Virus record (IMG/VR): IMGVR_UViG_3300026549_000033
Coordinates: 64,001 to 128,000 of that record
Source: a virus
Lineage: Duplodnaviria > Heunggongvirae > Uroviricota > Caudoviricetes
DNA length: 64,000 nucleotides
Direction: 5' to 3' (one strand)
The position numbers and the translations under genes were made by a program. Shown piece after piece: positions 4,642 to 44,265 of the stretch. Each line of letters begins with the position of its first letter. The first letter of the stretch is position 1. The notes beneath the pieces were generated by a model. The model was given only the letters and a program-made list of their open reading frames with translations, ran no database searches and had not been told where the DNA came from.

Positions 4642-4645
4642 TATG

Positions 4646-4715: not shown

Positions 4716-4813
4716 AAACGGTGATGCGCACACGTAGGTTCTTGTTATTTCTTACTGAGAAGAAGTATTCCTCTGGTTCTGTCTCGTCCAGTGCTTAAAA
4801 AACGGGGCTGCAT

Positions 4814-4891: not shown

Positions 4892-4900
4892 TATTTACAA

Positions 4901-4975
4901 TGCCAAGTAGCTCAATGGCAGAGCAATGGTCTGTTAAACCATAGGTTATTGGTTCGAGCCCAATCTTGGCAGCCA
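4901..4975 (+). tRNA. tRNA-Asn (GTT)
   Basis: Anticodon arm ATGGT-CTGTTAA-ACCAT, CCA. Confidence 0.93.
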
Positions 4976-4980
4976 TTTAT

Positions 4981-5096
4981 AATCACGATGTACGCAGTCT
5001 TGGAAAATTGTTGGCTATAAGCATAACGGTAAGGTCAACTTCCACGTATGATCAAACCGTTCACAATTTACTTGTACTGGGGAACGTGGAGTGATT
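4981..5096 (+). ncRNA. Candidate compact pseudoknotted RNA
   Basis: Closing AATCAC/GTGATT plus crossing helices AACGGT/ACCGTT, TCCACGT/ACGTGGA, AAATTG/CAATTT. Confidence 0.5.
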
Positions 5097-5102
5097 TAAT
5101 AC

Positions 5103-5512
5103 GGGGGTGACAGGTTTTGACAGTATAAAACTTGGCATTCTATAACAGGTAGAGACGCATGACCTCTTTAAATCGTGTACAATGATAAACGCTAATAACG
5201 TAATCAAAGCTGACTTCGGCTACAGAACTGCTTTAGCAGCCTAAGAAGTAACCTATAACAGAAGCTGTATGTTATAACGGTTAGGCGCAGCACGTGGTAG
5301 TTTACATTGCTTATGTGGAATGTACGTGAACCCGTCTTTAGTTTGACCACAACACAAGACGTTAAAGTTAGGGTTAGTGGTAGACCTCGGAGGATATTTG
5401 TTAGCTTTCTCCAACCGATTAAAGGCTAAAAGGCTAAAACTAACTAAACCTGTAATAATTATAGGTGTAGAGATATATTGGACCGTGGGTTCAATTCCCC
5501 GCACCTCCACCA
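5103..5512 (+). ncRNA. ssrA: tmRNA
   Basis: 5' GGGGGTGACAGGTTTTGAC, 3' T arm and CACCTCCACCA; tag frame 5191-5244 ANNVIKADFGYRTALAA*. Confidence 0.93.
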
Positions 5513-5519
5513 TTTTAAA

Positions 5520-6170
5520 ACTTACAAACGCAGGTACAACTTGGTAAGCACCGAGCTGAAACAAAAAGGGCTTACGACAATTACAGAGGCGACTACATCT
5601 TATTTCAGCATGGCATGGTCGAGAAGTAATCTGATAAAAAAGCGTTGTACACAGACTCCACCTCTCTGTAGTGAAAGTGGAAAACTATAGTTAATGAGGT
5701 TGTTCGGGCTGCTTTCCTCCACCAAAAAGCAGCTTGTCCTAAAGTTTATAGGTAGGAGGGTCCACCTTCAAAGCAAATCCGCGATGGTACTTCAACGGGA
5801 AATTCTCTTGGAGTTGAGATATTCAGAAGCTAAGATACAGGGCCTAAACCTACCCTATAATTAATTGGGATATGAAAAACTTAGAGCTCTTCAGTTTTTC
5901 ATTGAACGACCGCCACCGCAAATGGCGGGATATAAAACGTGACCCTTTTGTTCAGTTTCGCTCACGCAAAATAATTGAAACTGGAGCCAAGTTTACAAGA
6001 AGTGAGACGGGAAAGCATAAGACTGTACTTCAGTACTGCTCAAATGTCCCCTGTGAAGAGAGTCGACTTACTCACAGCACTATACCTATATAGGCGGTCA
6101 TAGGGCTTACAGTGTACCAAAAAACTGAAATAGGTGGTTTTACCCTCGTTTTACATTAAATAATGGGGGG
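5520..6170 (+). ncRNA. Candidate large structured ncRNA (about 650 nt)
   Basis: No credible ORF; crossing 7-bp helices 5534-40/5644-50, 5555-61/5603-09, 5582-88/5664-70 and many hairpins. Confidence 0.55.
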
Positions 6171-6174
6171 TCAT

Positions 6175-6261
6175 GTAGCAGGTATGCAAGTGGTTAAAGC
6201 AAGGGGTGCTAAAACGCCCCGCCTAATTTGGCTTCGTTGGTTCAAATCCAACTCTGCTTCA
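6175..6261 (+). tRNA. Atypical class II tRNA-like element (Leu-like) with non-canonical anticodon loop
   Basis: D arm TGC-AAGTGGTTAAA-GCA, variable arm GCC-TAATTT-GGC, T arm GTTGG-TTCAAAT-CCAAC; loop GCTAAAAC is 8 nt (or 6 nt); no CCA. Confidence 0.6.
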
Positions 6262-6269
6262 CTTTTAAA

Positions 6270-6780
6270 ATCCATGAGCGGTTGCACGCAAAAAGGGTAA
6301 GGCATGTTATACTCGTTTAGCCTTGTTATAGGGATAAAATAATAGACTGGTGGATGAATGATTTTATCTTTGACGAATTAAACATTCTCATTAAGTGACT
6401 AGTGATAGACAACACGATTTTGTAGTTTAAAGGTTTAGAAACTATGCGGTAGTTGCTTACGCATTCCTTTAAGTACTTCTCCACAAAGAAAGAAGGTAAA
6501 GATAACGACCAAAGGAAGGTGCAACACTTCCTTTTTCCAAAATTTATAAAGCTTGGTTGAGCCTTTACATGCCAATGCGCACAAAACTGAAGGCGGTTTC
6601 CACGCGTTGTCTCCTTAACAATGTGTCATAGAGCTGGAGGAGTGCCTATCTGTATAACATAGGACTTCCAAGGTACTAAGGGCATGCATAGTACCTACCG
6701 TGGGTCGCTACAAACCTTTTGGCGAAAAAGAGTAGTGTCGGTTTTCCCGAGTTTCCTGAGCTGAAAAAAACTCGGGTATA
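6270..6780 (+). ncRNA. Candidate structured ncRNA(s)
   Basis: ORF-free run of hairpins, e.g. AAAGGAAG-GTGCAACA-CTTCCTTT, AGGTACTA/TAGTACCT, CCCGAGTTT/AAACTCGGG. Confidence 0.45.
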
Positions 6781-6781
6781 T

Positions 6782-6868
6782 GGGGCGGTGTGCCGAGTGG
6801 CGAAGGCAGCGGACTGTAAATCCGTGACGTAAGATACAACGTAGGTTCAACTCCTACCCTCCCCACCA
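6782..6868 (+). tRNA. tRNA-Tyr (GTA)
   Basis: Anticodon arm GCGGA-CTGTAAA-TCCGT, long variable loop, CCA. Confidence 0.92.
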
Positions 6869-23225: not shown

Positions 23226-23262
23226 ACTTGACAGACTTATAAATATACGATATAATTATAGT

Positions 23263-23336
23263 AGCAGTTGTTTACCTCAATAAACTTAATTGCTAAGAAA
23301 GAGATAGGACTACGGAACCCCTATCTCTTTTGTTTT
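23263..23336 (+). ncRNA. Candidate antisense sRNA against the shared class A leader
   Basis: TTGACA(23228)-17-TATAAT promoter, no ORF, hairpin with CCTCAA loop, two blocks complementary to the class A leader, 11-bp terminator. Confidence 0.7.
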
Positions 23337-23643
23337 GGGATTTTCTGCCACACCCAAGAGAGCCACATTTCGCGAGAAGCCAACCCATCATGATTGCCTG
23401 CTTCTCATATATACTTTAACTTTCGAGGGGTTAAACCTATATGAAAAATTCCTATGATTTTGATTTTTAATTATGAATGATTTTTATATTTGACTTTCCA
23501 AAAGTTATAACCGAAGTTATGGAAATAACCTTGACAAATTTACATGGGCATGTTCTCAGATCCATGCCTGTTAATAACCTTGAACATGCAAGGGTAATCT
23601 GTTATAATATAAATGTAAGCAATAAAGAAATGAGGTACAAACT

Positions 23644-24570: not shown

Positions 24571-25919
24571 AAGTCCTGGGGAAACCCTTTCCCCATAAGG
24601 CTTTGCAACCCCTCAATTCTATATGCTTACACTGGTGAAACCCTCTCTATGAGAGGGTAAAGCCATACGCAATTTCAAAATCAACCTCTGGGGAACCCCT
24701 TGCACCACAAGAGCTTTGCCATAGAATGATTTTTATTTTACACTCTCAAACCCCTGCACCATAAGGATTTCCCCATAGATTTTAACAAAACTTAATTAAA
24801 TTTGATTAAATAATTTGACACACTTTAAAATAGGTGATATAATAAAAAGGCTAAAAATTAAAACTCTCTCTCTTTAAGAAAGCTCAAGAGATATATAATA
24901 TAAAAAGAGCTTTGAAGTCTGTAGTTATCCGCTACAGGCTTTTATATTTATTACATTATAAGAGTAGAAAAACTAAATAAGAGAATATAAGAGTTCTTTG
25001 TCCCTTATTCTTTCTCACTTACTTATCTACTTTTATACTTCGGGATATTTCGTACCCACTCTCTCTTTGTTACACTGGTAGATAGCAAAAGTAAGTGAGT
25101 TTTCTTATATAACCTTGACAAATTTACATGAGCATGTTCTAAAATAACCTTGACTATTATACCTATTTTGTGTTATACTTAATCATATAATGGTTAAGTA
25201 TAACACAAAACGAATTGACCTTACACATAGCACATTATACTATATACATAACACCACACCAACAGGAAGAACCCACTGCATATAACTGCACCTTGCATAA
25301 GTACTGTAAAGCCACGCACCACTCCTCTGACACAGAGAACCTTATGCAACCCCACAGAGCTAATGCAATAGTGCATATATATATACATGTATAAGAGGAC
25401 ACCATGAGAATATGCACGCATATACATATAAGAGGACACCATGAGAATATACATGCAAAATCAAATAAAAGTTATTCCAAAGTACATATTAAATTATATA
25501 GTGTAACAAGAGAAATGTTACGAGCAAACTAAATACAATTACAGAAAGTCCTGAAAACAGGCACAGGGCTTGCTTTTTTATGCCACCGCACCCACTTTCC
25601 CTTACAACCACAGTTACTTTACACTTCTTAATAATCCACCAAAATACACTAATTCCTCACATCTCTCACCCAAATCCCTTGCTATACTTACTATTCCACC
25701 TATTTTATATCTACCCGATATAAACCTTTACAAACCTATCTATTCGATATACCGCATAGATATATCTACCCGATACATATTACCACCACAAGTCTTATCT
25801 ATTCTTAATTTCCATACTTTTCATATATCTACACGATATATCTAAAAGGTACATTCTTTACTTTTCTTCATATTTTATGGGATAATATATTCATACCCCT
25901 TTGACTATACTACATGAAA
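24571..25919. other. About 1.35-kb non-coding interval separating class A and class B arrays
   Basis: No credible ORF; orphan promoter TTGACA 24815; 23-bp direct repeat at 25391/25428; G-poor tracts. Confidence 0.75.
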
Positions 25920-25982
25920 TAACCTTGAACATAAATACAATACATGTTATAATAATGGTATAAAGCAAAGGAGTTAAAACTT

Positions 25983-28771
25983 ATGACAATCTATATTACA
26001 CTTACTACTTTCTGTAACATTAAAGACAGAGATAATGTAGACGGTAAAGGAAAGTTATACAGGTATAATAACAAAAGAATTACCAGAAATACTTTTCTTA
26101 AACTTCTTCATTATCTTAATAAGGATAAGGGAAACAAATACATTTTAACAGAACATAATATAGAAACTTCTTCTAATTATATTACTAATGAGAAATATAT
26201 TACCCATATTTACAGGTGGCAACTTCCTATTATTCATCACCCTTTCTTACCTTAAAACAAAACTTATATTAACCTTGAACATAAATACAATACATGTTAT
26301 AATAATAGTATAAGAAAAACAAAAGGAGTTAAATCTTATGGACAATATGAAAGATAAATACATGCTTGACAGAGCAGGACAAGACTATAGACCTAAAGAA
26401 GAAAAACCTAGACATATCTTTTTCTTTAAAGGACACTATATTATGATAAGTGAAGACTATAGAGATGTATGGGTACTTACAAGGAATTCTTATTTTTCTA
26501 CTCATAACAATTCTTTAGACGAGTCTTTAGTTCAAGGTATGGAAGAAGTCTATAATATAAACAAAAGAAACTATGACAGAGAAATAGAAAGAGAAAACAA
26601 AGAAGAAAAAGAAACTGCTATAAGGGAACAATTAGAGCCTTATATGAAAGTTATTATTAAAGAAATTATGGCAAGTAAAGAAAAATAAACCTTGAACATA
26701 AATACAATACATGTTATAATAATAGTATAAGAAAAACAAAAGGAGTTAAAATACTATGAATATTATAGAAAGCATGGAGTCAACAGGTACAATATATCTA
26801 TTAAGATACTCAAGAGGTTACTCATCACAACCCGACGAACTCTTAACTGAAAAAGCACTAATAAATAATGCTGACTGCTCTGCTTATTGTACTGGCTATG
26901 ACAGTATTTGCACCTTAGAGGATGCTATCGAATACTATGAAAGCATAGGTTATGAAATCTATAAACTAACAAATATTCAAGTAGAACACTTAACAAAATA
27001 AAGGAGTTAAAATCTTATGGGAATACATACTATATACATGCAAGATAAATCTATACACCACATACAGGAAGAACATAGAGGTATTATATACTCTTATATA
27101 TCTAACATACAACAGGATAATATCTTTGCTATTATTAAATATACTATGCCTTTAGAAATAGAGAATATATTCAAGAATAGAAATAATATATCTCATACTA
27201 TAAATAACAGGGATACTTTATACATAGCACTTACTTATTCTAATAACAGGTATTATCTTACTATGGATATATGTCAATCAGAGGACTTGGACTATTCTCA
27301 TACAGAGGTATTAAGAATTATAGGCTCAAATATAGATAATGTAATGAGAGCATATCAGAAATTTTATACTACTTCTACTTTCTATAACAGAATTTTATCT
27401 GCTATTAGAGGGGATGCATGCCAGTGGTACTCTTATATAGATGCAGACGAAGAAGAAAATCAAAGGAGTTAAATACTATGGCAAAAATTATAGCAGAAGT
27501 TACATATAGCTTTTATGCAAATACTATTAACAGAGATAAAAATGTGCAAATAGTTACTTCTGAAAATGAAAAGAGCTATTACTGTCAGGCAATAGGAACA
27601 CCCTTTAAGAAAGACAAAGAGAATAAAGTACAGTTTATTGTAGGCGGAGTTGTGCCTTACCTATCTGTATTTAAAACTACTACTATTACAGAAGAAGACT
27701 TTGCAAACGGAAAAATAAAGCAATATGTAGTAGACAACCTTAATGCTGAATTAGTAGAAATCATGAAAGAAGGATTAAAAGAAATACTTGAAAATGTAAA
27801 TATAAAATAACCTTGAATTTTGTCATACTTATCTGTTATAATAATAGTATAAGGAATCAGTTAAACAGAAAACAAAGGAGATAAACTTATGAAAACCATA
27901 GACGTAGATATTGTTAAAGCAATTATCAATTATGTAAATAACGGTAATTCTAACTACAAAGAATTTGCAAGACTTATGTCTTATGAACACAGGACACTTC
28001 AACAACAATTTACTAAGTTATGTATAGCATGGCTTAAGGAATTATCTGAAACTGAAAACTATGACCTTAGAAATGAGGGAAGTGTTAAATTTGCAAAGAG
28101 TGTTAAAGACAAATTAGTAAACTTGCCTTTAATATAATATAGAAAAATAACCTTGAACTTAAATACAATACATGCTATAATAATAGTATAAAACAAAGGA
28201 GTTAAACTATGAAACAATTTTTATGTATATGGGATAAAGAAGTATTCCACACAGAAAACATAACAGAAATTAAAGGTATAGAATTCTTTACTCTTGGGAA
28301 TGGGTATAGTAAAGAAGAAATAGAAGATATAAATAACATGGAAGTCGGAGACTTATACAATACCCCTACATACCCTAATCAGCATATTATTACAAGGATA
28401 AAGGATATATAATCTTAATAAATCTTAATAACCTTGAACATACAAATAAAATCTGTTATAATATAAATGTAAGCAGTTAAAACAAAGGAGTTAAAATCAT
28501 GTACATCAACAAAGTTATTTTTATGGAATTTGACGAAATTGGAAACTTAGATACTAAATACGGAGACCAAATCGTACAAAGAACTGACTACGGCACAACA
28601 GAAATCTTAGCTGACACTATTCAAGACCTTATTGCAGACCTTGAAGGTGATAATGCAGAAGAATACAACTTTACTAAAGAAGAACTATTGGAAGACCTTA
28701 ACAATTCTTTAGGTACTGACGTAGTAGAACTATTACTAAATGACGGCTTGGACTTCATCTTAGTAGTATAA
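25983..28771 (+). CDS. Block of 8 hypothetical class B genes (25983-26255, 26338-26688, 26756-27001, 27017-27472, 27478-27810, 27889-28137, 28209-28412, 28499-28771)
   Basis: Each ORF follows a class B repeat or its RBS; 27478 start reassigned. Confidence 0.8.
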
Positions 28772-28810
28772 CCTTGAACATTAAAAAGAAACATGCTACA
28801 ATAGTATTAT

Positions 28811-28868
28811 AAGGAATGGAAGGGAATATTCGCCCCTTTGGAGTATAGCGACAGGTACTCACATTCCC
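28811..28868 (+). promoter_or_regulatory. 58-bp structured leader element, copy 1 (identical copy 36526-36583)
   Basis: Three-way junction GGAATG/CATTCC, AAGGG/CCCTT, GAGTA/TACTC, between promoter and RBS. Confidence 0.75.
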
Positions 28869-28895
28869 CTTAATAAAATAAAAGGAAATTAAACT

Positions 28896-30082
28896 ATGAC
28901 AAAAGAAATTACATACGCAATTATAGTATACGAGTATCACTCTTTAGACAAAGAAGAATACACCTTATACGGAATAAATAAGGATAGACTACAAAAGACT
29001 ATAGCTGACTGTCTTAAAGAAAATAAATGCTTTAAGGTAGCAGTTTTTGACGGAGAATAAGGAAATGGAGAACACGCAAAAAACTTTCACAATAAAATTA
29101 CATACCACTAATACAAATATTGACAGAGAAACAATCAGAGAATTTCTAAATAATGCTATTGAAAATAGTAGTCTTAAAGAAGACTTAACTTATAGTGTAG
29201 ATGAAAAAGTCGGAGTATTATTTAATTTCTTGAACGATACTATGGCTTTCAGCTCTTTTATAAGAAACACAAAAGAAGACTTCTTAGAGGACTACCCATA
29301 TTTTGCAGAGGAGTATGACTTCTGCTTATCAGAATTCAATAAGCATAAACAAGATGCTCTCATAACCTTCTTAGAAAACACAAGTACCAAAGAACTTACA
29401 GAACCTTATGGCTTATTACCTAAAGACTTTGGGTATTGTGTAGGACAATATATTAAAAACAATATGACACAGGAAGAACAAATCGAATTTTTGAAAGTTA
29501 TAGCAAGTAAAGGACTAAGAATAGAAATTTATTAAAATAACCTTGAACATTAAAAAGAAATATGTTATATTAAAAGTACAAAGTGGTTAAAGCAAAAAGC
29601 GAGTTACACATTAAACAACTCAACACTCTTTGGCACATGCGTCAGAGTATAAAGAATAAATGCGGACGAACGTCTTTCGGGAATTTCTAACATCAAGCAC
29701 AAAACAGTAAATTCCCACTGTATAATAAAACAAAGGAGTTAAAATCATGGGCTTAGACTTAACAATCAGAACACAATCAAACTTTACAACAAATGAAAAA
29801 GGACAGGACACTTGGACTGTTACATGTATCGGAAACTTAAGAAATTGTTGGGAAATCTTAGAAGAAATACAGAACTACACCGAATTAAACAACTGTACTA
29901 CTGTTTCTGTATATGGCAAACACTTCCACAAAATCTTGGAAGACCTTAAAGAAGAACTTCCTACTTTAGATAAAAACAAAGCAGACGTAGAATACGAAAT
30001 TAAATGTCTTGAAGAACTTATTAAAGAGAATAATATTGAAGACAATGACATGGAAAGTTACGAGGTTCATGCTTGGTTCTAA
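28896..30082 (+). CDS. Hypothetical genes 28896-29060, 29065-29535, 29747-30082
   Basis: ORFs with RBSs; the first (54 aa) is not in the track and the second start is reassigned. Confidence 0.75.
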
Positions 30083-30414
30083 AAATTAGAGACCACTCAC
30101 AAGCTCAAGAAGGCACTTAAAATATATAAGGACATAAAAGAATACCTAACTAATATAAAAATCCTCAAGGAATTAAAGCAGACCACCTTAAATAAAGAAA
30201 TAAATATAAGGAGACCACACAAAATGCAAATAGAATTATATGACAAAGTACAAATAAAAGCTCTCTTATCAGAAGGAGACGACACCTACACGGTAGTTAC
30301 AAGAACTAAAGACCGTGAAGGTAATGTAATGTTTGCTTTAGAGGACGAAGACGGCTTTTTATTAGAAGAAGTATTTTACCCCTCTCAACTAATCAAAGTA
30401 CAGGAGAATGACTA

Positions 30415-30795
30415 ATGACAACCGCAGAAAAATTATCATACGAAGAATTCAATAATAACTTAGACCAATTCATAGGTAGCATGAACTTCTACCCTGTAGC
30501 TTTCTCACATATTATATTTACAGACGGTATAAAGTACTTTGCTGAAACTTGTGAATGCTTTTGGCTATTAGACCTCATCGTTTATAACTTGGAAAGAATA
30601 CACAGACAACTTGGTGCTTTATTCATAGACATTGAAGTAAACAAAAGGCACACAGTACACATAACAGTTAGGGAAGACAAAGACATGCCTATAGTATTTG
30701 AAAAGAAACAAAGAGACCTTTGTAAAATAATACCTGTAGGCACATACAGATTCTACCTTATGGATAACACTTTATTATTACCCTCTGAATATTAA
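30415..30795 (+). CDS. Conserved hypothetical protein (DUF6876-like)
   Basis: FTDGIKYFAETCECFWLLDLI motif, recalled family resemblance. Confidence 0.55.
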   Translation: MTTAEKLSYEEFNNNLDQFIGSMNFYPVAFSHIIFTDGIKYFAETCECFWLLDLIVYNLERIHRQLGALFIDIEVNKRHTVHITVREDKDMPIVFEKKQRDLCKIIPVGTYRFYLMDNTLLLPSEY

Positions 30796-30813
30796 CTTGA
30801 AAGGAGTTACACT

Positions 30814-31284
30814 ATGGCTTGGAAGAACACAGATATTGAAAAAATTAGAGAATACAACCGACAATACTATCAAAAGAAAGTAAAAGAAAAACGTGCAAAA
30901 GAAAAAGCAGGACGTAGCATAACTAAGGAATGTCCTATATGCCACACTACTTTTACAACTGATAAGCCAAATCAAAAGTATTGTTGTGATGCGTGCAAGA
31001 AAATTTCTGTTAAAATCAAAGGAATTATTTACAGAAGAACTCAAGAATACAAAGACAAATTAAATGAATACAGGCACTCTGACAAATTCAAAGAACAACA
31101 AAAACAATACAGACAAAGTGAAAAGTACAAAGCATACAGAAAAGAATATGTAAAGACAGACAAGTATAAAGAAATTGCTAAAAGATATTTACAGTCTGAC
31201 AAAGGTAAAGCTACTTTACAAAGGTATGCAGAAAAAAGAAAAGCAAACGGTTGGAAACCGCTTAAAACAAGCAAAGAAGAATAA
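30814..31284 (+). CDS. Basic protein with a CxxC...CCxxC zinc finger and about 13-aa helical repeats
   Basis: CPICHTTF...YCCDACK followed by repeated Y..(S/T)(D/E)K.K units. Confidence 0.7.
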   Translation: MAWKNTDIEKIREYNRQYYQKKVKEKRAKEKAGRSITKECPICHTTFTTDKPNQKYCCDACKKISVKIKGIIYRRTQEYKDKLNEYRHSDKFKEQQKQYRQSEKYKAYRKEYVKTDKYKEIAKRYLQSDKGKATLQRYAEKRKANGWKPLKTSKEE

Positions 31285-31350
31285 CCTTGAACTTAAATAA
31301 TAAATCTGTTATACTAATAATGTAAACAGAAAAACAAAGGAGTTAAAGCT

Positions 31351-34300
31351 ATGGCAAGAACTGTAGAATTAACAGGAGACGAATTAAACTTTCTCCTAAC
31401 AAACAAAGAAATAAATGTACCTACGGCAAGCAGAAGTATTCAAATCTTTACAAATAAAAACGAGAAAGAACTTCTCTTGAACTATGAAGGACAAGGTTAC
31501 AGACCTATTAAAGTTACAATAGAATTCGAGTATGACGAAAATATTCACTTTTCAGAAGGAGACGACTAATGAAAGAACCTTTAGAACTAACTGAAAAAGA
31601 AAGAGACATCTTATTCTCTTTATTATTAAAAGAAATAAGAGATATAGATAACTACAATGCAGTAGTACAGGCACACTTGAAATCTTACAAGGAAGACTTA
31701 CATACAATCTATAATAAAATTGTAGCTAACATGGACGAGGACTAATCAATGTTTGACAGAACCAAAGACCAAATAAAGAAAAAGAAATCAGAACAAGTTA
31801 TAGTAAACGGCAAGGCTTGGGATAAGGAAAGTCTCAAAGACTTATTAGACAGGAATGACAAAGCCGTGTATCGTGCAATACTTCTTATCTATAGTTTTCA
31901 AACAGACGAAGAAAAATACATGGGTACTACAAAAACTGTAAACGGAAAAGGCTTTAGCAAATTTGACGTGGAAGTCTTATCAAGTTTTGCTATGCAATTA
32001 CGCAGAGGACAGGAACTCACACTCAAACAAATGTACGTAGCAAGACCTAAAATTAAAAAGTATGTAGGACAAATCCTACAGTATATGAAAGACAGAGAAG
32101 AAAATAAATAACCTTGAACTTAAATAATAAATCTGTTATAATAAATATGTAAACAGAAAACAAAGGAGTTAAAATCATGACAGAAAACGGAACACTTAGA
32201 GTATATCATATAAGAAACGGACATATTGCTCATCAAGGAAATGTTACAAGTCCTATGCAAGCTATTGCACTTATAGAACAATGGGCAGACGATGACCTTC
32301 ATAATCCGAACGTATCTTTCAATGCTTTTGGCTTGGAAGTCTATGACGACACAGACCTTCCCGAAGGAGACAAGGGAACTAACGAAGGTTGGAGTGAATG
32401 GTATAACAGTGAAGGACAGGACATAGCTGAACTCATGGATAACATTGAGGAAATGCTACAATAACCTTGAACTTAAAAATAAAATACGTTATAATAAATA
32501 TGTAAACAGATAAAACAAAAGGAGTTAAATCATGGGGCAAAGAACCGCAATATTATTAAAGAAAAATTTTGGAAACAACAGAAGTACAATCACACTCATT
32601 CATCACCAATGGGGTATAGGTAAAGTAATGCCTTCTATCTTTATGCAAGAAGTATTGAAGTTGGCTTATCCTATGAATAGAAGTCTTGAGTCTTTCTACA
32701 TAGGAGACTTAAAAGAAAAGAATAAATTACCTATAGACTATTTCTTTACCTTTGAACCTTTGAGCAACACTGACAATAACTATATTACAAACAAAGAAGT
32801 TGCTACAGATGATCCGAATGAGGATATATGGAGACAAGAGGTCAGAGTTAGATATGGAAGACAAACAGATAACAACAACGGACTTATGCTCGTTGAAGTT
32901 ACACAGAACTATGATAAAGAAGGAATGCCTGAAACCTATGGACACATGCTATCTGTTAAAGTTGGCTTTGCTCTTGGCTCGGAAGAAATCTCAATAGAAC
33001 ACCCACACTTACAACGTTGGATAGACGTAGAACCTGAATTTGTACGTCTTGTTAGTATGGAAGAATATGTCTTGAGAACCTTTAGGAGTCGTGATGAAGA
33101 AGTACAAAAGTACTCAAAGAAATTTGTTAAGGCATGCAGAACTCTTATGGAACTTGAAGACATTGAAGAAGTCTATGACAAGAAGGGTTTAAAGAAACGT
33201 GAAGAACGTGAACAACATATCTTGAATTGTATAGACGGACTTACAAAGGACTTACCCGACGGAGTTGAAATAGAAGTACCACTTGAATTTCAAGAAGTAC
33301 AAAACTTATATGTATAGGAGACAAGACCATATAAAATAACCTTGAACTTAAATAATAAATCTGTTATAATATAAATGTAAACAGAACAAAAGGAGTTAAA
33401 ATCATGGCAGACAATGTTACTACAAACTTTACAGAAGAATCTTTAAAAGTTGGAAATACAGTTTATGTTTCTTTAGGCACAGACGACGAAGACTTGGCTG
33501 ACTACCTTGAAGAACACGGAGACCAAATTACTATTACAGAAGTAGAACTTGACGGAGACGAACCCACAGGAAACTTTTGGGGAATATCTGCTGACGGTGA
33601 GGACTGCCCTTACCACTTAGAATGGAGAGACGTCTATGCCGTAGACGTAGATGCCGTAGAAAACTTGGCACTTAAAGTATTTAAAAACTTATCTAATAAA
33701 GAAGTCATAGAGTACACTTGCACGGCAATTAACTCTCTGCAATCAACAGGGGAACCTTTAGACTTATCACAAACAACCACTATTAAAGTCGTTCAATCCT
33801 TCATTATTGACACCCTCATTACAAACGAAATCCGTGAAGGGTTTAGAAATGCAATCACAGGGGAACTTGAATAACCTTGAACATGTAAATCAAATCTGTT
33901 ATAATAAATATGTAAACAGTTAAAACAAAAGGAAGTTAAAATAAAATGAAATGCACAAACAATCAATACAAAAAATTTACAATAAAAAGTTTACTTAACT
34001 CCTTAGAAGAAATAATGGCTCGGAATCCAGAGATAACTTTGGACTCCGAAGTCATTATCTCCGACGTCAACATGAGCTTTTTTAAACAGGAAGTTAAAAT
34101 TTATCCTACACACGACTACAAAGACAGACAAATGAAAGTAGGAATTTATCTCAACCCTTATGAAAAAGACGAACTCATAGACACAACGGAAGAAGAACCT
34201 AAGGAAGAAATAAAAGAAGTAAACCCACACAATGCACAAGCTATTAAACAAATCACAGAAGAACTCTCACAGGTAAATCAACCACAACCACAAGAAGAAC

Positions 34301-34359
34301 CACAACCTATTAAGCAAGATATGAGCTTGGCTTGGATAGATAAGTACACACGGAGATAA
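31351..34359 (+). CDS. Block of hypothetical class B genes (31351-31569, 31749-32111, 32177-32464, 32532-33317, 33404-33874, 33946-34359)
   Basis: ORFs behind class B repeats or their RBSs. Confidence 0.8.
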
Positions 34360-34363
34360 ACTT

Positions 34364-35182
34364 ATGACACAAACTATACAGGAAGTATTTAAACAATTTT
34401 GTAAAGAAAGACACGCAGAGGACAAAGGAAGAAATCATGACCTCTTGCAAGAAGTCTATGCAAGTACGGAATTCTTTGATACAACCTTGTATAAATTTGT
34501 AGGTATAGAATATGACTTTGACAAATTCAATAGCAGAACCTACATGGCTTACTTCTCCACAGAAGACTTATGTATTCCTTTTCAAAATAACTTTATTAAA
34601 ATAGAAGAAAACAAATACATATTCTTGAGAGAGTATGCCCCTGATATCCTGACAGGCACAATGTTTATACCTAACTACATAGACAAAGTATCTTTAAACA
34701 TTCCCTTTAGGATAGAAATAGGAGAGAAAACCTCTGTAATTATATCAGACTTTTATGTAGATATATTAAAAGATAGAATAGAAAGAATAGTCAGAGACTT
34801 ATTTGTAATAGTTATATCAGTATGTAAAACCTTAAGCGAACTTTCAAAGAAGTCTGTAGCCGTTGATAAACCTTCAAATCCAAACCTATGTGAATACTAC
34901 AGAAGGAAAAGAAAACCCACAATTAAAATACCTCAAAGACCTATATATTATATTCTTGGAGAAAAGCATGAGAGTGTATCCGCAAAGTATAAATATATAA
35001 GAACTATAGGAAACTTAGAATATTCTTTTGCCTTCAAAGTTAGAGGACATTGGAGACATATTAACGAAGGAACTTTTGGAAAAGACCGCAACGGAAATTA
35101 TAATGTTAAAGGCTATACTTGGGTTACAGAATATACAAAGGGAGAAGGAGAACTCGCAAAAAGAATAAGAGTTATAGAATAA
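34364..35182 (+). CDS. Conserved phage hypothetical protein
   Basis: C-terminal FKVRGHWRH...WV..YTKG motif seen in phage proteins. Confidence 0.7.
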   Translation: MTQTIQEVFKQFCKERHAEDKGRNHDLLQEVYASTEFFDTTLYKFVGIEYDFDKFNSRTYMAYFSTEDLCIPFQNNFIKIEENKYIFLREYAPDILTGTMFIPNYIDKVSLNIPFRIEIGEKTSVIISDFYVDILKDRIERIVRDLFVIVISVCKTLSELSKKSVAVDKPSNPNLCEYYRRKRKPTIKIPQRPIYYILGEKHESVSAKYKYIRTIGNLEYSFAFKVRGHWRHINEGTFGKDRNGNYNVKGYTWVTEYTKGEGELAKRIRVIE

Positions 35183-35242
35183 CCTTGAACATTAAAAAGT
35201 TATCTGTTATAATATAAATATACAAAACAAAAGGAATATACT

Positions 35243-38200
35243 ATGAGAAACAAATCAGAATACATTAACAACAGAATTGAAAAACTTTTTGGAAAAGTCG
35301 GAAGACGTAAAGGAGACTTTTATTGTTATGGCTCGTCTATTGCAGAAGTTGTAAATGACGGTGGCGGTATTCATATTGTACTCACAGGAAGAACTACTAC
35401 AGACTTAATAGAAAAACTTGATGCAATAAACGACTATATGAACTTTAAAAAGTATCAAGAAAGCAAGTCGCCCGAAGAAAGCATATAGGCAGAACCCGCA
35501 CAGTACTTGGCTTTCCACAGGTGAAACCTAATCAAAAAATTTCATGAAATTTTGAAATTTATATAAGGACAAAATAACCTTGAACTTAAATAATAAATCT
35601 GTTATAATATAAATGTAAACAGAACAAAAGGAGTTAAAATCATGACAAAAGGAATTACAAACAGAGTTAAAATTCAGAAGTTTATAGACGTTCTTAATAC
35701 TCTGACCTTTGAAGAAGTTACGGAAGAAAATCTTAAAAAAGCACTTCCAAATTCAAGAGTGGACTTTGTGAATAAGGTTGAAGAAGACATGACTGACATT
35801 TCAATAGACGACTATACCTTTACTATTCACAAAAAAGTAATAGGTGAAAAATACCCTATAGAATGGGTACTTATTGGAGCAGACACAGACCACCCATATT
35901 TCTTATCTGACTATGTAGAAGTTTACCTTCCTATACAAGAAGACGATAGTACCATGTATTGTGAAATACAAGCTGAAGGCTACATTGAACCACATAATTC
36001 GGGAAAAGAATTTTGGCTTAGACTTCATTTCTACAATAATTAAAAATAACCTTGAACTTAAATAATAAATCTGCTATAATATAAATGTAAACAGAAAAAC
36101 AAAAGGAGTTAAAATCATGTTATTAGGAACATTTTTGACAGACGTAGACAAAGCATACGACTTTCTACAATTAACTAAAAAAGAATTCTTGGAAAGCTAC
36201 TCATACTTAACAGAACAAGAATACGACGAAACAAATGCTGAATTCTTATCAGATAAAACAGGAAACTTGGCAGAACTCATGAGGGATGCTGAAAACATGC
36301 TTATCGAAGAAAACACATATTTTGACAATGAAGATACAAACCCATACAGAGGTGCAACAGTAACAGGTGAACAACTTAAATCAGCCGTATACTGTTATAC
36401 CGTAGAACACTTAAACAAAGAGGAACAACAGGAATTTGAAGAAATATGTGAAGACATGGGTTGTTAAAATAACCTTGAACATACAAAGAAAACCTGTTAT
36501 AATATAAATATAAACAGATAAAACAAAGGAATGGAAGGGAATATTCGCCCCTTTGGAGTATAGCGACAGGTACTCACATTCCCTTATACAAAACAAAAGG
36601 AGTTAAATCATGGAAAACAAAATTGAAATTATTATGTCTGATTCAAATGATAACGACATAAACATAGAAGAAGACTTTGAAAAAGCCGTAGAAAGACTTT
36701 ACGAAGTAGACAAAGTATTTACAAGAGACGAAGTACAAGAAATGCTATACAAAGCAAGAGCTATTGCTGAAAACTTGGACGTATTAGAAAAACAAGCCTA
36801 TCAAGAAGGTAAAGAAACACAAGCTGAAATAGATGGTAAACCTATGAATGAACAATGGATACAGGATTCAAAAGAAATCCCAAATACAAAACGTATCCTT
36901 ATTGATATAGACTGTGCTTACGACGAATTCTATCTTATGCACGATAAAGACAACCTTCTTCCAAATTCTTGCAATTCTGTAGAAGTTGTAACAAAAGAAG
37001 TTGCAGAATCTAACGACAGAGACATGGATGCTACAGAGGACGAAGAAAATTATAAGGTAGGAGAAGGTCTCTCATACTACAGAGAACTTGGAGACAGTGG
37101 CTACTACTTTAGGTTTATGTAAAGGAGTTGTACTATGAACAAAGAAGAATTATTTAGAAAAATTAAGAACTTTTCAAGAAATGACAATGGCAGAATTATT
37201 CTCGGTGATATCCTTGAACTTCGCATATCAGAAGACGGAGAAAACCTTGACGTTTATAAGTACACTAACTTAGACAACGTAAATATTGAAGAATATGACT
37301 TTGACGGAGACTATATAACTTCAATATATCTCAAATAATCCCGAACGGTAATAAAAGTACAAATCAGATAATATATTATCTAAAATATGCCCGAACGGTA
37401 ATAAATAGCTAATATATTATCTATAATAAAATAACCTTGAACATACAAATCAAATCTGTTATAATATAAATGTAAACAGAAAAACAAAGGAGTTAAAATC
37501 ATGGCAGTAATTTTAAAAGACACAGACGTTAAAGAAACAAATTCAAAGTATGGCTATGTCGTAGAAATGTTTGACACAGTAGAAGACTTCAAAGGCTATA
37601 TCAGAGAAGAACTCTTAAATATTAGAAGAAATCTTAGAACTGACGGCATGGAAGACGAGGAATTAGATACTTTAATAGAAAAGAACTTATCAAATTGGAG
37701 CTTTGCTACCTTGTATAACAAATACAAAGAGTATAACTTTGCGTATGAGTTTGAAATCATATAAGGAGATAAGACATGACAAAGAAATGCCTATCAAATA
37801 AAGAATTTCAAGAGGTATTAGAACTCTTAGGAAAACAAGTTTTCCGAAATGGTACAATACACTATGTAGACCACTCAAAGAGATACCACTATGCCCTCTT
37901 TGTATATTTCCCCGAATATTCTGAAAAAGTACTTGACGTTATGGCAGATAAATTCGGAAGAAACATAGACTTTGAAACAGTACATGTACCAAACAAGGAC
38001 TTTTCAAAGTCTGAAATAGAGGACTACACAGAAATTTATAAATTAAACAACAGATTCACAATTACAGAGCAAACACCCATACTTGAATTAAAAGTGCGTG
38101 GGTATATTAACGAATACAAATAAGGAGTTAAAATCATGAAAAAAGAATATACATCAACAGTAGACGGACTTATAGAAGTACTCACAAAAATTAAAGAAAA

Positions 38201-40613
38201 ATGCGGTGGAGACACTTATGTTCAAGTCAATGTCATAGGCGGAGAACGTGCCACAGGCTTAGTATCAATATGCTTAGATAATGACGAAGGTAATGACAAT
38301 GCCTTAGTTTACTTAGAAACAGACATAGAAGAAAACTATTGCCCTAATACGTTTGAATTCTATACACAAGGGAAAGAAATCTAAGAATAACCTTGAACAT
38401 TAAAATAAAATCTGTTATACTATAAATGTAAATAATAGGAGTTAAATCATGACAGAAAAAGTCAAATATAGCTATGCTTATGACAAAGAAAACGACTTGG
38501 TAACAGTTAGTAAAGTTAGCACTTTTCATTTTACACATTATCATCGAGACCTTCTATTACAAGCTCTTTCTAATGGTTATGTAGAAATACGAGGAAAATT
38601 TTTAGAAATTGAAGAATATTCAAAGGCATATCGAGACCTCACTCAATACAATCTATTGAAAAATGACTTAGACGGATGGTATGACACAGGAACTATAATT
38701 AACAAAGAAGAATCTATAAAACTTATAAAATCCTACACCGAAGAAATCTAAGAATAACCTTGAACATTAAAATAAAATCTGTTATACTATAAGTATAAAG
38801 AGTTAAAACAAAGGAGTTAAAATCATGACAACAGAAACAATTCTTAAATTAAATCCCGAAACTTTAATATTTGACGTATACAACGACAAATATTTCTATG
38901 ATAAGGGTACTAAGAAAACACAGTACGAATCTTTTTATGTAGATATTACTACAGAAGTACCTGAAATGGAAGGAGAAAGAAAAGTAGCTACAGTAATGGT
39001 ACAATGTAACGACCACGTGGATGTACTTTACAACGACCAATATATCGTGGACGTAGTAACTTATGACCTTGCTACACAGGAGATTAACGGACAAGTAGAC
39101 CAATCAAGATACGACCGTCAAATGAACGTAGTAGACGGCTTAGAATTGCCTAAAATAGACAACATAACAGTAAACGGAGACACTTTAGACGACTACATTA
39201 TCCGTATGCTGAAAGTAGTCTTTATGGCTTTCTCAAATAAAAATATGTATAACCCCGAAAAATACGAGCTTAAAGTAGGTTATGACAAACAAGAACCAAA
39301 GAAAATCAGACATAGAGGTTGCTTTGCATGGGAAGGTTGCCATAAAATCTACTTATGTCAAAATATGGGAGATATTCAACTCATGTTGGCTTACGGCTAC
39401 GATATTTACCCTATTGAACAACTTAGAACAGTATGGAAGAACTCTTGCTCATTAAGGTTTATACACCCTGTAAACCTTAAAAACGACGATATATTGCCAC
39501 AGTTTGCTAAGTACCCAAAAATTATAGGACATAGAATAAAATAACCTTGAACATTAAAGTAAAATCTGTTATACTATAAGTATAAAGAGTTAAAACAAAA
39601 GGAGTTAAAATCATGACAACAGACTTAAATTACACAAACACTTTCATTCGCTACAACTATGAAGACGAAGACGAAATGGTAGAAGTATATCATGGTGAAT
39701 TAGAACTATACAATGAAACTACACAATTTTACCATAATACCTTTGCTGACGAAGAAGACTACGACGAAAACAAAGAATATACAAATGTGTTAGACTGCGT
39801 AGACCTTTGGGAAGGTAACGGTTACGGCATAGCACAAGTTATTAAAGGAAGATACTAAAATGACCTACGAAGAATTGGCATATACTATTCATATCTTAAT
39901 GGCTGACGGCTATGTTAAACAAGAGAAACCTCTATGGGATCTGGATATGTATAGAATTTTAAATAAAGTAAATAAAGACATAGGAACTTACGAAAGAGAC
40001 AAATAAAATGGCACACGAATTAGAAAAAGAATTACAACAAAGAATTATAAGTCATAAAAATATTGTAATAACTTCTTCTCTTATTATGTTTGAAAACGAA
40101 GGAATATATAATTCTTTCCTACTCAAAGATAAGTACGGAGACGACAAAACTACAGAAAGAGGACAGGGAAGAGCCTTTAAAGTAGTAGACGAACTCGAAG
40201 AACAAGCAGACCAAGAAACATACGACCAAATTTATGAAATGTGCTGGCAAAGAGCCAAACATAGAATATCAGATAGGTTATATGGAATAAACTAATAACC
40301 TTGAACGACACAAGTAAATATGCTATAATAATAGTATAAGAACAAAGGAGTTAAAATCATGACAACAGAATTAAAAGAAATTAAAGTTGGAGACCTCGTT
40401 CTTCTGAAATCTATAGAAGAATATGAAGACGAAGGAGACGAAATCACAGAATTAGTAGAAAAATTTGCGGGAAACACAATGAAAGTTTTACGAGTTGACC
40501 AAAGTCTTAATGAATTCGGTGAAAGAACCTATCAACTTGTCGCTTTAAACAGGGAAGTAGGATTCATAACGGCTACAGACCACGAAATCGCAAAAGTTTA
40601 CAGAGAAATATAA
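35243..40613 (+). CDS. Block of hypothetical class B genes (35243-35488, 35642-36043, 36117-36467, 36610-37122, 37135-37338, 37501-37764, 37776-38123, 38136-38384, 38449-38751, 38825-39544, 39613-39858, 40008-40295, 40359-40613)
   Basis: ORFs behind class B repeats or AAGGAG RBSs. Confidence 0.8.
36526..36583 (+). promoter_or_regulatory. 58-bp structured leader element, copy 2
   Basis: Identical to 28811-28868, again between the -10 box and the RBS. Confidence 0.75.
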
Positions 40614-40625
40614 GGAGACACCACA

Positions 40626-41030
40626 ATGAGTACAAGAAGTGATATAATCATTAAAGACTACGGAATTTATGAAGGAAAAACATGGAAAATGCAACAAAAA
40701 CTATACCACCATCACGACGGTTATCCCGAAGGAGTAGGTGCCTTCTTAATCCAAGAAGTCCTTCCGCAATTAGAAAATTCTAATGATGCGTCTTGCGATA
40801 CGATTGCTAATTTTTTGATTAAGCATAAAGAAGATAACGAATTTGAATGCACAGTGTATAACCATGTAGATATTGAATACCGCTACATAATTGATATTCC
40901 AAAGAAAGAAATAAGATGCCTTGAAGGACACTACACAAATTGGAATTCCCCACGAACAAGATTTATAACTGACCGAGAAATTGATTTATCAAAATTCAAA
41001 TCAGTTAAAGCCGAAGAATTATATAAATAA
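40626..41030 (+). CDS. Conserved phage hypothetical protein
   Basis: MSTRS.I...LYHHHDGYPEGVG motif. Confidence 0.75.
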   Translation: MSTRSDIIIKDYGIYEGKTWKMQQKLYHHHDGYPEGVGAFLIQEVLPQLENSNDASCDTIANFLIKHKEDNEFECTVYNHVDIEYRYIIDIPKKEIRCLEGHYTNWNSPRTRFITDREIDLSKFKSVKAEELYK

Positions 41031-41059
41031 CAATGATATTTTAACTCCCAAATTACAAT

Positions 41060-41091
41060 GTTCAGAGCCAAAAGACTCTGAACTTCTTTTT
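41060..41091 (+). terminator. Intrinsic terminator
   Basis: GTTCAGAG/CTCTGAAC followed by TTCTTTTT. Confidence 0.75.
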
Positions 41092-41154
41092 AAATAAATT
41101 TATGATTATATTTTTATAAGTAGAGAGTATGGTTTAAATTAAGAAGGAGAAAGC

Positions 41155-43230
41155 ATGGCTAAAAAAATTGTTGGTAAAAATGGAAAGAAAGAAACTTATT
41201 TTAATAAGTATGTTATAGGTGATAATAATGTATGCCCCGAATGTCATAGACCGTTCAAAGACTATGACCTCAAGAATATTGAAGAAAGAGGTACAATTTC
41301 CTGTGTTAAGTGCGGAGCAAAATTAAGCAGAAAATAACCTTGAACTTTCATATCAAAAGTGGTATAATAAAAGTATAAAAGATACTAAATAGGAGACACC
41401 ACCAATGATGGACACATACTCAGTTGAATATTGGACAACGGACGGCACAAGAGTAGGAGTACAAATTCAAGCATACTCCTCATACGATGCACAGAGATAT
41501 GCAGAACAAATGCCAAACTTTGATATATTGGCATCTTTCCCTGAAAAAATTGCATCAGGCTAAATTTTATTTTAACTCATTTTGTTTTGACAACTCCTTC
41601 CTTTTATGCTACAATTAAGTTGTAAATAGGAAGGAGTTCTTTTATGTTACAATCAAATAGAGAGAAAGAGATATCTAAAGCAGATATGCGTAAAAAAGTA
41701 GAGGCATGGAAAACAATTAACAGTGTTCTTGTGAAAGCTAATGCAGACTACATGAATTCTTTAGCAAGCCTACTTACCGAAAAGCAAGTGCAATTATCAC
41801 AACTTGAAGAAAAGCTAAAAGGTGAGGGAGCTACAGAAGAAGACAATGCAGAGTACTTATTTCAAGCAGGATATACCCAGTGCTTAAAGGATATCTTAAA
41901 TGCCAAGAAAACCACGCAATCCTAAACGAGATAAGCCTTCGAGTAATCCTTTGAATAACTTAGACTTGTCTGCTTTCTTAGAACCCAAAAAAGACACCAA
42001 AACCACCAAAAAAGAAACTTACAAGGGGTTACAAAAAGAATACGAAAGAATTCTCCATAAAGAAATTCAAAGAGAAAATAGAGCCTATAGAGTAGTTTAT
42101 ATGAACCATCCTGAACTACTCTATGTTGCTTTTAGTAGTAACAGGGAAAATGCTAAATGGCAATCAGCAAAGTACTTTAAAGAAACTTTAAATCCGTTCT
42201 TTACTAAAGACAGTTATAATAAAGAAATGATGAATAGCCGTGCCTACAGGGTACAGGAACTTGATAAGTTTGCTTTAAAAGGAGTTATCCCTATCCCTGA
42301 CTTACTACATGCTCTTGACGTTTCTATGCCCTGTTCTGTTTGCGGAAAAGACCATTTTGACTACTCCGACTATGAAAAGGGAAGGTGCTTTATTGTAGAA
42401 GGAGAAGGAAATCTGAACCCTTTTACACAAGGTTATATCTTATGTTACGAATGTCATAAAAAATACTTAGGAAAGAATTAAATAACCTTGAACATGACCT
42501 AAAAATTCTATATAATATAAGTATAGAAACAAACAAAACAGGAGATAAAATGTCATACATCACATCAAATCTTGCTCCTTATCGTAGCAAGGATATAGGA
42601 AAAGAATTTTCAGAAATATTGGCAGAAGACTATGAATGGGTACGCTCCTCTATAGAAGACAGAGGAATAATCTTTTTCTTAGCTACCGTTTCTGTTATGA
42701 CCTTATCTTTACTTAAGGCTATTTCACACGTCATAACTCAAATGCAGAAACCTGTAATGGAATATAATCACTTGAAATTACATAGAGGTATGGAATCTGA
42801 ATCCATTACTCAAATTCTCACAAGGAGAGAGTGCATAGACGAAGTGAAAAACCATGACAATCTATGCCCAAATAATAAGGTTAAAACCGAGAAAGTAGAA
42901 AAACTAAATACTTTGAGAAACTACTTATATCAGCATGACTTAACCCTTCATGCTACCGTACTTAAAACCATAAATCATAAACTCACAGACGACGAGCTTA
43001 TTGAAATGTATAGGTTAGGTGAAATCACTAAACCTTTAACAACTACTCATATCACCTTTGGAGATAACTTAAATCGTCTATTAAAAGATACCTTAGGAAA
43101 TACTATTGATTTAAAAACAAATCGTGTAACAAAAGAAACCTATCTTAGAATTTTCAACGACGATTATATGCCCATCAAAGAAGGATTACAGAATTTATAC
43201 AATGAAAAAGTAAAGCTCAAATTTGACTAA
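41155..43230 (+). CDS. Hypothetical genes 41155-41337 (zinc ribbon), 41405-41563, 41644-41925, 41900-42481 (CxxC pairs), 42550-43230
   Basis: ORFs with RBSs; 41405-41563 (52 aa) is not in the track. Confidence 0.75.
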
Positions 43231-43275
43231 AACTCAAATGATTGCTATAATAGAACTATAAAAGGAGACAAAGAC

Positions 43276-44265
43276 ATGCAACTAAAAAGATACTCAACAG
43301 AAGAATTACAGGGTATATGTGCTGACATATTTATGACATACATGTCAGCAGTCAATAATGACTCTTATGACTACCCTACCCCCGCTCATCTTCTTCACAA
43401 AGAATATGAGGACAAATTAGAACAGTATAAACATAGGATTCAAATTTACCAAGAAAAATTACGTCAAGGATTAGAGAATGACGTAAGAAATTCATTGGAA
43501 AAACAACTTTGTTACCTTGAAGAAGGAGCAAAACATATAGCTCTTTCTTGCAGACAATACCAAAAACAATTATATAGTATTACTCATTCTACTGATTACG
43601 CACGAACAACTATAAGAATTCCTTTAGATAAAAAGATAAATTCTTATTATGATGATTTTACTTTAGAAGTAGTCTTTTATGACGACGTTTGTACTCTTAG
43701 CGGAAAATTTGAACAATATAAGGCACTCCATACAGAGAAAGAAAGACGTGAATTTATTGAGCGGAACACTGAAATAACCCACATGGGATTACTTTATGTA
43801 AGAAACGAAAAGTTGATTTCAATTATAGCTCTTATGGGCGAACTTAATACAACAGATCCACGAGTAATTGAAAGCGGAGTAGTTCTTCTACCCCAAAAAT
43901 TCTCCAACTTTGATACATTATCCTTAAAAGATACGTCTTCAATAGATAATAATGACCTTAAACAATTTATCCAAAGTAAAATTGATTTAGATAAAGAAAA
44001 TATGGAAGAATTATCGTCAGAAATCATTAGAGGAGATAAGTATAGTATACACCGCTCTCAACAAGATAACGGTAAAATTGATTTATATATTCGTTATACT
44101 TGTAGAGGTACAGGTAGGGTATACTACAACCTGTTAAACTTACATAATTTATCCTTATCTTCTTACTTTAAAGAAAATGATTATGATAGTTATAGTAGAG
44201 CTTGGTGGGATTTAAACACCTTAGGTGGAAACCCTGAAAGCGAAAAACCTGTAATACGTTGCTAA
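43276..44265 (+). CDS. Protein with a C-terminal DUF6745-like region
   Basis: RYTCRGTGRVYY motif. Confidence 0.5.
   Translation: MQLKRYSTEELQGICADIFMTYMSAVNNDSYDYPTPAHLLHKEYEDKLEQYKHRIQIYQEKLRQGLENDVRNSLEKQLCYLEEGAKHIALSCRQYQKQLYSITHSTDYARTTIRIPLDKKINSYYDDFTLEVVFYDDVCTLSGKFEQYKALHTEKERREFIERNTEITHMGLLYVRNEKLISIIALMGELNTTDPRVIESGVVLLPQKFSNFDTLSLKDTSSIDNNDLKQFIQSKIDLDKENMEELSSEIIRGDKYSIHRSQQDNGKIDLYIRYTCRGTGRVYYNLLNLHNLSLSSYFKENDYDSYSRAWWDLNTLGGNPESEKPVIRC

Follow-up and report, generated by a model that had tools for sequence, protein, structure and literature searches.

A stretch of 64,000 nucleotides (nt) from a Caudoviricetes phage genome (IMG/VR record IMGVR_UViG_3300026549_000033, 195,221 bp, 34% G+C; bases 64001-128000), hereafter the window, contains a bank of early gene cassettes that share one type of leader, class B. 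Behind this bank lie two short sequences that mirror the leader: element (i), which stands between a stop codon and an intrinsic terminator, and element (ii), which stands behind a gene for 52 amino acids (aa). The mirror-image specificity of these sequences, their conservation in the phage family and their co-variation with the leader are supported. We lean, if only slightly, towards reading both as RNA-level anti-leader elements, which would pair with the Shine-Dalgarno (SD) sequence, the spacer and part of the AUG of class B leaders. The early bank would thereby limit itself, and the ribosome-binding site (RBS) of the following gene, 41644, would be hidden in read-through RNA. That the elements are transcribed, pair in vivo and repress is what we infer from the sequence.

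Element (i) and the class B leader

An earlier sequence-only reading of the window had placed an exact complement of the class B leader, with ATGAT alongside, ahead of a terminator, and its positions proved right. ATTTTAACTCC at 41038-41048 is the exact complement of GGAGTTAAAAT; this core begins 8 nt past a TAA stop codon (41028-41030), and ATGAT occupies 41033-41037. In the window, 13 forward copies of GGAGTTAAAAT stand against one reverse copy, that at 41038-41048. The forward copies of this exact 11-mer belong to 13 class B cassettes and are each time the SD sequence plus spacer of a promoter-RBS cassette. A shuffled-sequence significance test had been proposed as a check: dinucleotide shuffles give 0.13 expected matches to GGAGTTAAAAT, both strands together, and 0.07 expected matches for (ii) at three or fewer mismatches, so that neither match is a product of chance. 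Among 6,400 overlapping 32-nt segments of the plus strand between 14 and 46 kb, (i) falls within the top 0.2% for duplex formation with a class B leader, and (ii) forms the best duplex of all. Genome-wide, the only copy of TTAACTCC that precedes a terminator is the one in (i), and the remaining copies are inside genes.

Relatives, designated here by L numbers, were collected through a neighbouring 193-aa protein with 48 homologues; contigs were fetched for twelve of these, and a protein-profile scan of metagenomes added three loci. Across the fetched loci, the neighbouring protein is 39-99% identical and the gene order is kept. Ten relatives, in which the neighbouring protein has 39-76% identity to that of the window, carry the region of (i), which gives an alignment of 11 genomes including the window. 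In these 11 genomes, the stop codon, the anti-SD core (41038-41048 in the window) and the terminator follow one another in the same order, as expected of an anti-SD element in a 3' untranslated region (3'-UTR). Element (i) also offers a seed, predicted to be exposed, that is complementary to a target RBS, followed by a terminator hairpin and a U-tail. The best-conserved intergenic block of the alignment is TTTTAACTCC-AAAT: all 11 genomes have the same AACTCC core, and the AAAT behind the core is invariant or nearly so. The variable parts around it are 22 upstream columns, the loop and, in four genomes, the stem. Compensatory changes preserve the pairing of the terminator stem in the relatives, and for the motif itself the folds of all genomes predict no pairing, or weak pairing at most (a weak loop).

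Counts in seven loci of 12-20 kb give the same picture. GGAGTTAAAA occurs in reversed orientation exactly once per locus, 8-11 nt before the post-array terminator. In four of the seven (L008, L014, L016 and L017) it is the commonest SD-plus-spacer sequence among the SD-bearing leaders; in L010, L012 and L015 it is found in forward orientation only once or twice. The upstream gene differs in L012, L016 and L021, which indicates that the motif goes with the terminator and not with a coding end.

The flanks of the core follow the leader of the same genome. L014 has leaders of the form GGAGTTAAAAC, and the C of AAAAC is mirrored in its copy of (i); the L023 leader GGAGTTAAAAATC, which contains AAAAATC, is mirrored over 14 nt. 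L016 and L017 have spacer variants of their own that (i) matches over 13 nt, and in L021 the single leader seen, the TTGA variant GGAGTTGA, stands opposite TCAACTCC in (i). In a double-centred comparison of own and cross combinations over nine lineages, the longest match was reached in 27 of 20,000 permutations and the mean match in 149 of 20,000; the corresponding duplex energies were reached in 50 of 5,000 permutations for (i) and 9 of 5,000 for (ii). Related genomes inherit the same states from common ancestors, so these figures make the lineages look more independent than they are.

Immediately upstream of 41038, the window has no promoter-like site, and (i) does not qualify there as a stand-alone small RNA with a promoter of its own. 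In two relatives (L016:9355-9400 and L021:2990-3025), a shared block of about 27 nt located about 15 nt upstream of (i) ends in the extended -10 motif TGATACAAT. The shared motif corresponds to TGnTACAAT and is not called by the consensus promoter scan; in these two genomes, (i) may form a small RNA in its own right, about 65 nt long. L012 has a second TTTAACTCC at 4975-5010, inside the spacer of the promoter of its 53-aa gene (CCTTGAAT-TTAACTCC...TGCTATAAT). A minus-strand open reading frame (ORF) that would use the reversed leader as its RBS was considered and rejected, as neither a start nor a frame is conserved.

What the sequence-only reading called class B leaders are the RBS ends of complete promoter-RBS cassettes, about 25 in number. 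The terminator scan finds no plus-strand terminator-like hairpin between 25572 and 41060, despite some 25 strong promoter-like sites in these roughly 15.5 kb, so transcripts from all promoters of the array would be expected to run to 41060-41091. One common 3' end would serve all early transcripts of the bank (25572-41060). Several class B leaders hold a second copy of (G)AGTTAAAAC just 5' of the SD sequence (38793-38823, 39581-39611 and others). Such doubled-copy leaders each offer two partial anti-leader sites, and the leaders of L021 (AAGAAGTTAAATAT) do likewise. The features of the region are collected in Table 1.

Table 1. Coordinates in the window of the class B array, the two putative anti-leader elements and the features around them.
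Feature	Position	Strand	Description
Class B array	25915-40357	+	About 25 promoter-RBS cassettes: AATAACCTTGAAC-N14-TGnTATAAT, short A-rich 5' leader, then AAAGGAGTTAAAATCATG; presumed targets
Last class B cassette before element (i)	40301-40357	+	Promoter TTGAAC-17-TATAAT at 40301-40329; leader GGAGTTAAAAT at 40347-40357; gene 40359-40613
Putative anti-leader (i)	41033-41053	+	ATGAT, AT, then TTTTAACTCCCAAAT; conserved block 41039-41053
Intrinsic terminator	41060-41091	+	Stem 41060-41083 and T-run; first plus-strand terminator past the class B array; about 11 nt after the core of (i)
Class-B-type promoter	41340-41368	+	TTGAAC-17-TATAAT with TG; 52-aa gene 41405-41563; mRNA would carry (ii) in its 3' part
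Putative anti-leader (ii)	41569-41588	+	19/20 complementary to AAAACAAAAGGAGTTAAAAT; upstream of the -35 box of the next promoter; stop codon 41561-41563
Consensus promoter	41587-41615	+	TTGACA-17-TACAAT with TG, 11/12 matches; conserved in all relatives
Hairpin	41592-41638	+	Left arm AACTCCTTCCT at 41592-41602, in the promoter spacer; right arm AGGAAGGAGTT at 41628-41638, the RBS of gene 41644-41925

Element (ii) and the hairpin at gene 41644

Element (ii) is the reverse complement of AAAACAAAAGGAGTTAAAAT with one mismatch, and the complementarity that the first reading had claimed for it is borne out. The leaders cited there, those of genes 26756, 36117 and 39613 (at 26733, 36096 and 39592), match the 20-mer exactly. 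Behind the 52/53-aa gene, a TTAACT(C/T) core is found in 10 of the 13 genomes with a readable, intact junction (L024 is nearly identical to L008 here). The A/T part of (ii) follows the A-rich leader part of its own genome, which reads ACAAAA in the window, ACATA in L012, AATAA in L017, AATAAA in L015 and ATATA in L016. Opposite the two G's of GGAG, most copies of (ii) have U and not C, so that a G-U pair is kept, and the window copy has one A-G mismatch. The U opposite GGAG fits pairing between plus-strand RNAs and does not fit identity at the DNA level. In L014, a TnpB-like gene with a Cas12f1-like_TNB domain (381 aa; L014:8140-9285, minus strand) lies between the 53-aa and 93-aa genes. It is inserted exactly at the position of (ii), and the promoter and hairpin on its right side are retained.

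The hairpin behind (ii) constitutes a third element. The earlier reading had (ii) followed by a hairpin, which is correct; this hairpin is not a plain terminator, since it holds a consensus promoter and the RBS of the next gene. Its nine pairs are kept in 14 sequences, five with compensatory double changes. Its 11 U-G wobbles would be A-C mismatches on the other strand and can pair only in plus-strand RNA. The -10 box (41610-41615) is placed between the two arms, and the predicted start of the RNA made from this promoter falls in the loop; RNA from the inner promoter would therefore lack the inhibitory arm. In read-through RNA from the 52-aa gene, the RBS of gene 41644 is sequestered in the predicted fold. 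Both the co-variation of the helix and the position of the promoter thus agree with RBS sequestration combined with an internal promoter, as in the case of T4 gene e. A short T-run follows the hairpin, which gives (ii) the same layout as (i), namely anti-leader, spacer, hairpin and T-run.

Proposed mechanism and competing explanations

If the anti-leader reading is correct, both elements would be unpaired segments in the 3' portions of early mRNAs, with a hairpin following directly on each. Element (i) would belong to the 3' end shared by the transcripts of the class B array, which has no internal terminator, and (ii) to the region after the 52-aa gene. The pairing would keep ribosomes from binding and would probably expose the mRNA to decay. 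In cis, a helix between the 5'-UTR and the 3'-UTR could form in the shortest transcript, which would start from the promoter at 40301 and end at 41091. For the RNA 40335-41095, both the minimum free energy and the centroid folds predict that the leader (SD sequence, spacer and the AU of the AUG) is paired with ATGAT..TTTTAACTCC in the 3'-UTR. A long-range helix between leader and anti-leader, of the icaR type, is hence predicted in the window and is not found for the nearest cassette of L014. In trans, the full-length RNA or a terminator-protected 3' fragment would act, and any of about 20 leaders would be a possible target. The chances of cis and trans action appear about even. With growing numbers of transcripts, the early bank would restrain its own output, and translation of gene 41644 would depend solely on RNA from the gene's own promoter within the hairpin.

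Each leader class had been proposed to possess a cognate antisense of its own, in two orthogonal control channels. For (i), this separation is clear: the mean duplex energy is -13.7 kcal/mol with class B leaders versus -5.9 kcal/mol with class A leaders, and the class A small RNA (23263-23300) shows the reverse preference, with -7.5 kcal/mol for class B and -21.3 kcal/mol for class A. For (ii), it is weak (-16.9 kcal/mol with class B versus -11.9 kcal/mol with class A), because both leaders are A-rich and (ii) pairs with class A leaders as well. The upstream sequence was checked at nine sites of the early region, comprising the plus-strand terminator-like hairpins, the 20735 hairpin (called on the minus strand) and the hairpin of (ii). 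Anti-A sequence precedes the hairpins at 16566, 20735 and 23300, and anti-B sequence precedes those at 41060 and 41591, so that the stop, anti-leader and hairpin layout noted in the sequence-only reading holds for class B as it does for class A. Neither kind of sequence is present at the terminators at 15801, 24914 and 25558, and the terminator at 18701 is preceded by sequence with weak pairing to class A leaders (-10.2 kcal/mol). After (ii), the next-best class B-pairing site of the early region is at 23376-23417, just behind the class A small RNA gene. This site contains CATGATT and ACTTTAACTTTC and pairs with the class B leader at -15.3 kcal/mol.

Several observations weigh against the anti-leader reading. 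The duplex of (i) is short and AU-rich, at about -14 kcal/mol. The core is nearly invariant in both partners, and the co-variation rests mostly on a few flanking positions and on non-independent genomes; in L014, the leader of the nearest cassette does not match (i). Trans action would need a surplus of a stable 3' fragment, because each transcript contributes a single anti-leader against many leaders. The class preference of (ii) is weak, and some 28-mers at other places in the window, most of them opposite minus-strand genes, differ from it by no more than 1 kcal/mol. Since T-rich segments opposite minus-strand genes score near (ii), duplex energy alone is a weak significance test, and the argument is carried by conservation and co-variation, not by duplex energy. 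Element (ii) is also absent from L025, L022 and L020, has changed in L019 and has been lost to the TnpB insertion sequence in L014, and it is dispensable to judge from its absence or removal in several relatives. Finally, the region is present in three bovine rumen metatranscriptomes as assembled contigs only, which carry no strand, ends or level and may stem from DNA carry-over.

The TTTTAACTCC-AAAT block could instead be bound, as RNA or as double-stranded DNA, by a protein of the phage or of its host, or could be part of a termination or pausing signal, with the complementarity to the leader being secondary, e.g., if one factor read the GGAGTTAAAA duplex either way. An invariant core in both partners would suit such a site too, as would the near-fixed distance of 8-11 nt to the terminator stem and the additional conserved CAAAT after the core of (i), which has no partner in the leader. 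We nevertheless consider it unlikely: a protein site predicts neither that the flanks track lineage-specific leader variants, nor that (ii) tracks the variable A-rich part of the leader, nor that deviations are compatible with G-U pairing, and no DNA-binding candidate was identified. It has also to be asked whether the elements are functionless by-products of recombination among the roughly 25 cassettes, i.e., inverted leader fragments homogenised by gene conversion. The genome is rich in 50-95-nt cassette repeats able to recombine, repeat-mediated shuffling has been documented for the promoter-early stem-loop (PeSL) cassettes of T4-type phages (PMC2839356, PMC4122927), and (ii) has been lost in some relatives. 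Yet the shared sequence measures only 10-20 nt and its flanks bear no relation to the cassettes, which leaves no homology to drive conversion. Moreover, the same pre-terminator position is occupied in 11 genomes although the neighbouring sequence and even the upstream gene differ, and each counted locus has a single inverted copy rather than a scatter of them. This origin therefore seems quite improbable.

The remaining alternatives are centred on (ii). This element might be a T-rich, UP-like part of the promoter at 41587-41615, the match to the leader and the 11-mer of (i) being coincidences in AT-rich DNA. Counted from the -10 box, it occupies about -22 to -41, abuts the -35 box and overlaps its first two bases; it is made of T-tracts, and T-rich segments pair fairly well with an A-rich leader. 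An UP element is hard to reconcile with the spacing between the TTAACTC core and the -35 box, which varies from 2 to 10 nt in the relatives, and with L025, which retains the promoter without the T-rich element. Chance sits badly with the shuffle expectation at three mismatches, the first rank of (ii) among the 6,400 segments and the conservation of (i) in all 11 genomes. This alternative is disfavoured, and we give it very little credence. A promoter on the minus strand, TTGTCA-18-TAAAAT (41593 to 41564), whose RNA would be antisense to the 52-aa gene, is listed by the scan with 10/12 matches and has similar sites in L016 and L021. However, L008, L010 and L012 retain neither the -10-like hexamer nor the spacing, and the conserved TTAACT core would sit in the spacer, where conservation is unexpected; the match itself arises because TTGACAA is nearly palindromic. 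It was rejected for its lack of conservation and is scarcely credible as an account of (ii).

Relation to known systems and significance

Antisense RBS occlusion, pairing of 5'- and 3'-UTRs, and RBS sequestration with an inner promoter are all known kinds of regulation. The difference here lies in a mirror of the leader shared by a whole early-cassette bank, situated where the transcripts of that bank have their common 3' end and conserved within a phage family; no description of such an anti-leader was found in the literature, as far as open-access text is concerned. Among phage antisense RNAs, c4 of phages P1 and P7 and sar of P22 occlude a ribosome-binding site. They resemble the present elements in being phage-encoded RNAs complementary to an RBS region and located beside a stable hairpin. 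In contrast, the elements of the window would be parts of mRNAs without a dedicated promoter or a processed small-RNA gene, and their potential targets are many, not one operon. The class A anti-leader small RNA of the same window (23228-23336) likewise mirrors a shared early leader and has a terminator behind it, with reciprocal class preference. It has its own 12/12 consensus promoter, whereas the class B elements are embedded in 3'-UTRs, with an extended -10 motif upstream only in L016 and L021.

Similar in layout are the icaR mRNA of Staphylococcus aureus, in which an anti-SD motif of the 3'-UTR pairs with the 5'-UTR of the same mRNA (PMC3868564), and hbs of B. subtilis, with an interaction between 5'- and 3'-UTRs (PMC5737220). 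As in these, a C/U-rich anti-SD sequence in the 3'-UTR, just before the terminator, complements the SD region of the same mRNA, and a long-range helix is predicted to close the transcript. Unlike these, the element belongs to a phage, its pairing extends over the SD sequence and the spacer as far as the first two bases of the AUG, and the leader is common to about 20 other cistrons, so that a whole gene class would be within reach. The T4 genes e, soc, 49 and I-TevI have an RBS that is sequestered in read-through transcripts and a promoter of their own inside the hairpin (PMC3014915). The helix 41592-41638 is of the same type: an upstream arm pairs with the SD sequence of gene 41644, the -10 box is in the loop, and co-variation supports the helix. 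Here, however, the inner promoter is of the sigma-70-type consensus and not a T4 late promoter, and the left arm is in the promoter spacer itself.

The array itself recalls the PeSL cassettes of T4-type phages (PMC2839356, PMC4122927), in which the small accessory genes of a hyperplastic region are flanked by early-promoter modules repeated dozens of times. The class B cassettes differ in that they have no individual stem-loop, a single terminator having been found behind the array; they are therefore not PeSL units. Class-wide shut-off of early mRNAs at GGAG-type initiation regions is carried out in T4 by the proteins RegB and RegA (PMC3014915). The proposed outcome is comparable, namely the coordinated inactivation of early messages through a shared GGAG and A-rich initiation region, but the proposed effector would be RNA complementarity and not a protein.

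The phage has no annotated relative: a megablast search of 38000-44000 against cultured phage records gave no match, and a 771-aa neighbouring protein has only distant phosphoesterase-domain matches. A promoter scan of IMG/VR viral contigs retrieved one near-identical contig, which is uninformative because both elements are identical to those of the window. Protein-family searches with the flanking ORFs gave no function except a zinc ribbon for a 60-aa gene. At the Rfam gathering score, the only matches in the window are transfer RNAs (tRNAs) and a transfer-messenger RNA (tmRNA), and no family matches the anti-leader elements. The tmRNA gene (5103-5512), whose tag peptide ends in ALAA, is within a cluster of seven to eight tRNA genes (3149-6868). 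The extended -35 block AATAACCTTGAAC occurs twice in reversed orientation, at 52955 and 60129 on the minus strand, in a region of minus-strand genes, and no copy of GGAGTTAAA is present near these two sites on that strand. An origin of the phage in the rumen fits the source of the RNA runs in which the region is present and of most related contigs.

The shut-off of early host-takeover genes in large phages is known mainly from the T4 proteins RegA and RegB. Were the anti-leader reading wrong, the motif would remain a strongly conserved non-coding signal beside a terminator. If it is right, the elements would represent an RNA-only route to early-gene shut-off, would explain why leaders are uniform within cassette banks, and would offer short orthogonal leader/anti-leader pairs as parts for synthetic biology. 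More generally, and as a tentative idea that we ourselves regard as rather doubtful, large phages with cassette banks might use RNA-only feedback in which each bank carries the mirror of its own leader, either as a 3'-UTR element or as a small RNA, and in which early transcripts titrate their own ribosome-binding sites as they build up; in the present phage, the class A and class B circuits would then barely cross-talk and would be timed independently without a protein regulator.

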